A stretch of 64,000 nucleotides of DNA from Escherichia coli. GTDB lineage: Bacteria > Pseudomonadota > Gammaproteobacteria > Enterobacterales > Enterobacteriaceae. Position numbers and translations under genes: made by a program. The notes under the pieces are model-generated. The model was not told the origin of the DNA. It saw nothing but the letters and a program-made list of their open reading frames with translations, and searched no databases. Below are positions 6,006 to 6,262 of the stretch, piece after piece. Position 1 is the stretch's first letter. Every line of letters begins with the position of its first letter. The stretch lies in NCBI RefSeq assembly GCF_003334815.1, contig NZ_QOWO01000002.1; one strand, given 5' to 3'.

Positions 6006-6262
6006 TCAGGCGTCCAGATTTTCTTTCACCCATGCAGCAAAATCGGTATAGCCGCCGATATGTTGCTGATCGACAAAAATCTGCGGCACGGTTTCTACGG
6101 GTTTACCTGCCTTTTGTTGTAGATCTTCTTTAGTGATCCCTTCCGCACGAATATCTACATACTGATACTGAAAATCATCGCGTTCATTGCTCAATTTCTC
6201 AGCCAGATCTTTTGCACGCACACAGTAAGGGCACCCGAACGACCAAAAATAACGGTTTGCAT
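6006..6262 (-). pseudogene. grxA: Glutaredoxin 1 (grxA) with apparent 1-bp deletion/frameshift near codon 10-11
   Basis: ATG at 6262 opens frame MQTVIFGRSGALTVCVQKIWLRN-stop; CPYCVRAKDLAEKL...ENLDA is encoded in a different frame; ATG-to-stop span is 257 nt (not a multiple of 3). Confidence 0.7.

Follow-up and report, generated by a model that had tools for sequence, protein, structure and literature searches.

The window analyzed here, a 64,000-nucleotide stretch of Escherichia coli DNA, raises the question of whether its glutaredoxin 1 (Grx1) gene, grxA, has truly lost a base at the active site and, if so, whether the loss belongs to the organism or to its assembly. The initial annotation had placed grxA at 6006 to 6262, with an ATG at 6262 in a good upstream context and an ATG-to-stop span of 257 nt. 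The coordinates and the span are read directly from the sequence and the list of open reading frames (ORFs), and the favorable context corresponds to an AGGAG at 6274..6270. The elements on which the following argument draws are listed below.

6006..6262, minus strand: grxA (glutaredoxin 1) pseudogene, from the native ATG (6262..6260) to the native TGA (6008..6006)
6229..6236, minus strand: deletion site, reading GGGTGCCC where K-12 reads GGGTTGCCC
6191..6262, minus strand: frame read from the native start, with 10 native residues (MQTVIFGRSG), 13 missense residues (ALTVCVQKIWLRN), and a TGA at 6193..6191
6006..6221, minus strand: remnant 71-aa ORF, whose GTG start at 6221 is the Val15 codon and whose product equals Grx1 residues 15 to 85
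6270..6274, minus strand: native Shine-Dalgarno sequence AGGAG, 7 nt 5' of the ATG, intact, in a region identical to K-12
6322..6358, strand not assigned: OxyR-operator-like motif upstream of grxA, intact
5976..5996, minus strand: hairpin resembling an intrinsic terminator (AAGCCCTCGCGTTGAGGGCTT, with a T-rich tail after it), 10 nt past the grxA stop
5599..5976, opposite strand to grxA: ybjM, the next gene, convergent
46594..47559, minus strand: trxB, intact

By its sequence, position, and regulatory context, the gene is grxA. When the missing T is put back, the translated product is the canonical 85-aa Grx1, 100% identical to the protein in PDB entries 1EGO and 1EGR. On the curated GrxA family models (NCBIfam NF008401 and TIGR02183, with equivalog cut-offs of 84 and 106.5 bits), this restored protein scores 164.3 bits against the cut-off of 84 and 148.3 bits against that of 106.5. 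The neighborhood is that of K-12, with ybjC-nfsA-rimK upstream and divergent and ybjM downstream and convergent. Upstream of the gene lies the sole match in the 64-kb window, with three mismatches, to ATAG-N7-CTAT-N7-ATAG-N7-CTAT (0.08 expected), the OxyR operator consensus. Like the terminator, this motif is shared with K-12 grxA (encoding the 85-aa protein of PDB entries 1EGO, 1EGR, 1GRX, and 1QFN), whose DNA is the same over 292 nt except for the missing T. In the window, by contrast, the frame breaks in the Cys11 codon, leaving CPYC and everything beyond it untranslated from the native start.

The proposal that one T is missing is borne out by the pairwise alignment with grxA of K-12 MG1655, which contains a single gap and no mismatches in 292 columns, including the ribosome-binding site. 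One T is gone from the TT spanning the codons for Gly10 (GGT) and Cys11 (TGC), so that GGT TGC becomes GGT GC, and the ATG-to-stop span is 257 nt instead of the 258 nt of the intact gene. The alignment with strain B-1109 places the gap at window position 6234. Within the window, the junction created by the deletion is found a single time, where chance predicts none. From 6262, the minus strand reads ATG CAA ACC GTT ATT TTT GGT CGT TCG GGT GCC CTT ACT GTG TGC GTG. Translation from the ATG gives MQTVIFGRSGALTVCVQKIWLRN, a product of 23 aa followed by a stop, and the out-of-frame run to a stop that had been described after MQTVIFGRSG ends at the TGA at 6193..6191. This 23-aa peptide matched no NCBIfam family.

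The glutaredoxin body, CPYCVRAKDL...ENLDA, is out of frame with the ATG, while its own frame is open back to the ATG. The frame translations agree with the earlier reading that this body sits in another frame, opening only at the GTG of the 71-aa ORF; indeed, the GTG at 6221 is the only start codon in that frame. The deletion had been positioned "just before" the CPYC motif. It does lie at the motif, but more precisely within the Gly10-Cys11 codon pair, where it removes the codon of the first cysteine. Since the base is lost from this codon pair, translation from the native start never reaches C11-P-Y-C14 in frame: the break falls in the Cys11 codon, and the dithiol active site Cys-Pro-Tyr-Cys is not in frame with the start codon. 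An uninterrupted ORF of about 85 codons is absent from grxA, where 23 codons can be read from the native ATG and 71 from the GTG. Judged from its reading frames, which include neither an in-frame CPYC motif nor a full-length ORF, the locus is a pseudogene of grxA rather than a glutaredoxin gene.

The 71-aa remnant deserves attention for what it lacks. It had been described as missing the first cysteine region. The first cysteine is indeed absent, but so is the second, because the remnant starts at Val15; it contains no cysteine at all, and both active-site residues are therefore gone. Without cysteine, no thiol-disulfide exchange would be possible even if the remnant were made by reinitiation. 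Nevertheless, it passes the curated GrxA cut-offs, scoring 127.1 bits against 84 and 117.3 bits against 106.5. Under the names "glutaredoxin" or "GrxA family glutaredoxin," 298 contigs have yielded deposits of the same product (e.g., BBS27903.1, CAI2942987.1, CAM9234668.1, and EFN4062224.1); a share of these contigs owes it to other lesions or to visibly error-ridden assemblies, not to the deleted T. Since a cysteine-free remnant exceeds the GrxA cut-offs, presence/absence or pan-genome counts can wrongly score such strains as Grx1 positive.

We are highly confident that the frameshift is a genuine, vertically inherited loss-of-function allele of a K-12-like E. coli lineage. Aligned with B-1109 over 56,272 bp, the window has no gap other than the deleted T, which is also the sole sequence difference between the two from window position 2549 to 32070; between 3600 and 28000, the gap alone distinguishes the window from B-1109, KE58, and SW07091. 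Strain 52F4, which carries the same deletion, shows no small indels relative to the window over about 59.5 kb. Among the other genes in the window, 49 of the 51 checked translate intact; the exceptions are ycaM, which is simply cut off by the end of the window, and aat, in which a base is substituted rather than lost or gained.

The deletion junction was found in 10 other public sources, namely 52F4, seven GenBank assemblies, and two ENA metagenome scaffolds, and the neighboring genes are intact in all of them. The GenBank assemblies with the exact junction are as follows.

GCA_917058965.1, GCA_037967625.1, GCA_003304595.1, GCA_958303215.1, GCA_900479005.1, GCA_965251705.1, and GCA_900449785.1

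Complete genomes tell how rare the allele is: 1 of the 5,304 complete E. coli genomes with a match has the junction, all backgrounds considered, and 1 of 5,426 (52F4) matches window 5900-6400 at 100%. The exact junction had no match in JGI metagenome contigs. Nine of the 10 carriers share a near-identical haplotype, with 0 to 5 mismatches per 6 to 16 kb at nine loci, and 52F4 differs from the window by 9 single-nucleotide polymorphisms (SNPs) per 59.5 kb. None of the public carriers is identical to the window, as all have at least one SNP or the prophage described below. A full-text literature search for natural grxA frameshifts retrieved no report of this allele, and grxA is merely listed among the loci with structural variation in an E. 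coli pan-genome paper (PMC12595684). The allele is nevertheless already marked as a frameshifted pseudogene in RefSeq, in 52F4.

Strain 52F4, from a calf in Switzerland, was compared with the window directly. Its locus AC0BNW_RS09135 (NZ_CM147848.1), annotated by PGAP as "glutaredoxin 1, frameshifted," has the same deletion and is 100% identical to window 5900-6400; over the roughly 59.5 kb shared with the window, the two differ by the 9 SNPs and by no small indel. Unlike the window, 52F4 lacks about 1 kb of cydD, does not have the amber codon found in the window's aat gene, and, next to ybjL, contains a P2-like prophage at the place occupied by rcdA-ybjJ in the window; the two are therefore different strains.

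The carriers can be divided into prophage-plus and prophage-minus forms according to this P2-like element beside ybjL, which suggests that the allele has some time depth. The prophage (ogr, gpD, gpU, and tape measure, tube, and sheath genes) adjoins ybjL in 52F4 and several other carriers. It is absent from the window and from loci L011 to L013 and L019, with the junction near window positions 3473..3486 (see also L004 28593..32000, L018, and L022 to L025). Within the stretch compared, no marker SNP was found that is common to the carriers and missing from wild-type relatives such as B-1109; in that region, the window is equally close to B-1109, which has wild-type grxA, and to the carrier 52F4. 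In the absence of a linked marker SNP, a single origin is a parsimonious reading and is not proven. We favor this parsimonious reading of the sequences, in which the deletion arose once among the carriers.

The tenth carrier departs from this pattern. In locus L017 (ENA ERZ28601215, HOLS23-1 scaffold_18, around locus 10001..10216), the flanks of the deleted T diverge from the window by about 1.5% (250 mismatches in 16 kb). Immediately around the deletion, a block no longer than 1 kb, delimited by window positions 5857 and 6856, resembles the window at 4 of 4 informative sites, while a three-way site comparison showed that both sides of the block follow a UTAK-3-like haplotype. No complete genome matches the L017 haplotype above 99.7%, the best being UTAK-3. 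These data favor the view that L017 is a mosaic, produced either by a short recombination import or by strain chimerism in the metagenome assembly; an independent deletion in L017 is the less favored alternative. UTAK-3 (NZ_CP157160.1) encodes an intact Grx1 that is a different allele (WP_001195231.1), and its rcdA is annotated as a frameshifted pseudogene (L027 10756..11293).

What would this allele mean for the cell? Ribosomes starting at the native ATG would produce a 23-residue peptide, never reading the C11-P-Y-C14 redox motif in frame, and we infer that active glutaredoxin 1 is not made. The gene is monocistronic, so that the frameshift has no polar effect on a downstream gene. The jobs of Grx1 would pass to thioredoxin 1 with thioredoxin reductase and to the other glutaredoxins; they comprise the supply of electrons to the ribonucleotide reductase NrdAB, to PAPS reductase, and to arsenate reductase, as well as the re-reduction of oxidized OxyR. 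The trxB gene, mentioned in the initial annotation in this context, is present in the window and intact. The same clients, with NrdAB as the Fe-dependent ribonucleotide reductase, appear in Figure 1 and Table 1 of PMC10751367, which describes grxA as being induced by OxyR and lists "Reduce OxyR" as the role of Grx1, with no H2O2 phenotype.

The proposal that Grx1 loss is tolerated agrees with published mutant data. A ΔgrxA ΔtrxC strain competed evenly with its parent or slightly better, chronic H2O2 stress included (PMC10751367), and HOSCN sensitivity was not seen in a ΔgrxA mutant (PMC10942458). By analogy with the published mutants, we predict almost no phenotype for carriers of the deletion. 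The engineered nulls (Keio ΔgrxA750::kan and ΔgrxA ΔtrxC), which show no growth defect, H2O2 phenotype, or HOSCN sensitivity (PMC10751367 and PMC10942458), are the best available predictor, since Grx1 would be expected to be absent in both situations. They differ in kind, being whole-gene replacements in K-12, whereas the window has a natural point deletion that keeps the promoter, the operator-like motif, the mRNA, and the cysteine-free remnant ORF.

A second mutation in grxA was found in none of the carriers. With the Shine-Dalgarno sequence, the OxyR-operator-like motif, and the terminator unchanged as well, the loss looks recent. The sequence features therefore probably reflect a recent, near-neutral loss of a redundant, dispensable gene, and such near-neutrality would account for the persistence of the allele. 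The finding adds little new biology, as the dispensability of grxA, a textbook gene, is known and the allele is already flagged in RefSeq for 52F4. A natural Grx1-null lineage persisting in several isolates could nonetheless serve as a control in studies of thioredoxin/glutaredoxin redundancy and of OxyR deactivation.

Another natural null allele is found in E. coli AP022120.1 (GCA_014169275.1), where grxA is disrupted by IS1 and the same 71-aa remnant ORF is left. There, in contrast to the window, the IS1 end abuts GCCCTTACTG inside grxA, and the locus lacks the 5' end of grxA together with ybjC and the 5' portion of nfsA. Nitrofuran resistance is known to arise through inactivation of nfsA. 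The IS1 allele corresponds to L014 and L025, at about 2277..3000 of L014.

Could the loss of Grx1 have been favored by selection? Without Grx1, slower re-reduction of OxyR might prolong the peroxide response, or the cost of a gene induced about 30-fold might be saved. [quoted passage not shown] The allele has been kept in sublineages with and without the neighboring prophage and in several sample types, and the deleted T is also present on a divergent background. Yet it is very rare, being found in 1 of 5,304 complete genomes and in no JGI metagenome contig, whereas a loss of broad benefit would be expected to be frequent or to recur. The IS1 allele does provide a second natural null, but that event also takes ybjC and part of nfsA, so that selection there may concern nfsA. 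We therefore regard an adaptive advantage as unlikely.

The presence of the deleted T in the divergent L017, within a short stretch (at most 1 kb) resembling the window, can be taken as a hint at a selected loss that spread. In such a scenario, the loss of Grx1 would have been selected in the lineage, for example by keeping OxyR oxidized for longer after peroxide exposure, and the deleted T would then have spread by recombination to an unrelated background or arisen again there. This fuller account appears rather improbable to us. If true, it would offer a natural Grx1-null population in which to ask why OxyR induces Grx1, a question raised in PMC10751367.

L017 also bears on whether the deletion was one inherited event, as we propose, or a hotspot deletion that arose independently several times. 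Its flanks are about 1.5% divergent, its haplotype has no complete-genome match better than 99.7%, and no linked marker SNP unites the other carriers, all of which would fit recurrence. The window-like block between UTAK-3-like flanks is, however, what an import or a chimera is expected to look like; moreover, a TT dinucleotide is no known slippage hotspot, and the remaining nine carriers are on one haplotype. Repeated independent deletion seems, on balance, a doubtful explanation, and inheritance of a single deletion is the reading that we retain.

An artefact, with the organism retaining the T and base calling or consensus building dropping it, is very improbable. Some public assemblies do give the same 71-aa ORF through obvious errors, and loci L009/L010/L020/L021, L015/L026, and L016 combine different grxA lesions with many fragmented neighboring genes. 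The window is of another kind: against two finished genomes, it has no other small indel in 56 to 59 kb, 49 of the 51 other genes checked translate intact, and the site is a TT dinucleotide with no long homopolymer. The identical allele in 10 other sources with clean flanks, nine of them on one haplotype, together with the lack of any other small indel in the window, makes a sequencing error very unlikely. Furthermore, the junction is missing from 5,303 of the 5,304 complete genomes; the deletion tracks one lineage, and a site- or platform-specific sequencing error would not behave in this way. The assemblies behind L009/L010/L020/L021, L015/L026, and L016 are GCA_053291625.1, GCA_045584115.1, GCA_900448645.1, and GCA_947000415.1; they have many small indels and fragmented genes at the locus, with the same truncated grxA resulting from apparent sequencing errors.

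It is hardly conceivable that the vertically inherited frameshift leaves Grx1 partly functional, through a −1 ribosomal frameshift or transcriptional slippage that restores the frame or through GTG reinitiation yielding a part-functional 71-aa remnant: the CPYC frame is open to the ATG, so that a −1 shift anywhere in codons 1 to 10 would give a CPYC protein, a five-T run (ATT TTT GGT) lies 5' of the lesion, and the GTG stands 28 nt before the premature stop, within a possible reinitiation range, but the zero frame contains no X XXY YYZ slippery heptamer from the ATG to the lesion, RNA polymerase would need more than five T's to slip efficiently, relatives do not share the shifted arrangement (5,303 of the 5,304 complete genomes with a match are unshifted), and the remnant, which lacks the first beta-strand and the active-site turn as well as any cysteine, is preceded at best by a single 4-nt Shine-Dalgarno-like match, GGTG, located 10 nt from the GTG. 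Programmed recoding of grxA was thus rejected as a candidate for want of an in-frame slippery heptamer, a longer T run, and conservation of the arrangement; a functional 71-aa product was rejected on sequence grounds, being cysteine free and having a poor ribosome-binding site.

Several features elsewhere in the window and in its relatives are worth recording. The first 2.5 kb (window 1..2548, comprising the 3' end of mdfA, ybjH, ybjI, and ybjJ) contain 40 SNPs relative to B-1109, against 7 SNPs in the next 53.7 kb; from this distribution, the boundary of what looks like a recombination tract would lie near window position 2550. The metagenome scaffold L019 has the window's haplotype over 1..2548. 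Three SNPs are private to the window with respect to both 52F4 and B-1109: two are synonymous (E30E in ybjD at 32071 and L176L in cydC at 44179), and the third, at 53813, changes residue 104 of rarA (A104E).

The aat gene (42237..42941, minus strand), which encodes leucyl/phenylalanyl-tRNA-protein transferase, an enzyme of the N-degron pathway, is interrupted by an amber codon, W49* (TGG to TAG at 42797..42795), where 52F4 and B-1109 have TGG. A 60-mer search detected this TAG in none of the 4,498 complete E. coli genomes matched, while GCA_002522095.1, whose near-identical background differs by 2 SNPs in 4.1 kb, has it as well. In other E. coli, a TGA gives the same 48-aa aat product, as does a TAG in loci whose DNA is only about 75% identical. 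The genes clpS and clpA, the pathway partners of aat, are intact at 38422..41049. Finally, the cydD gene of 52F4 (L003 18554..19159, with its counterpart at window 44845..45865) has lost about 1 kb, adjoins trxB, and is annotated as a partial pseudogene; in the window, cydD (44705..46471, 588 aa) and cydC are both intact.
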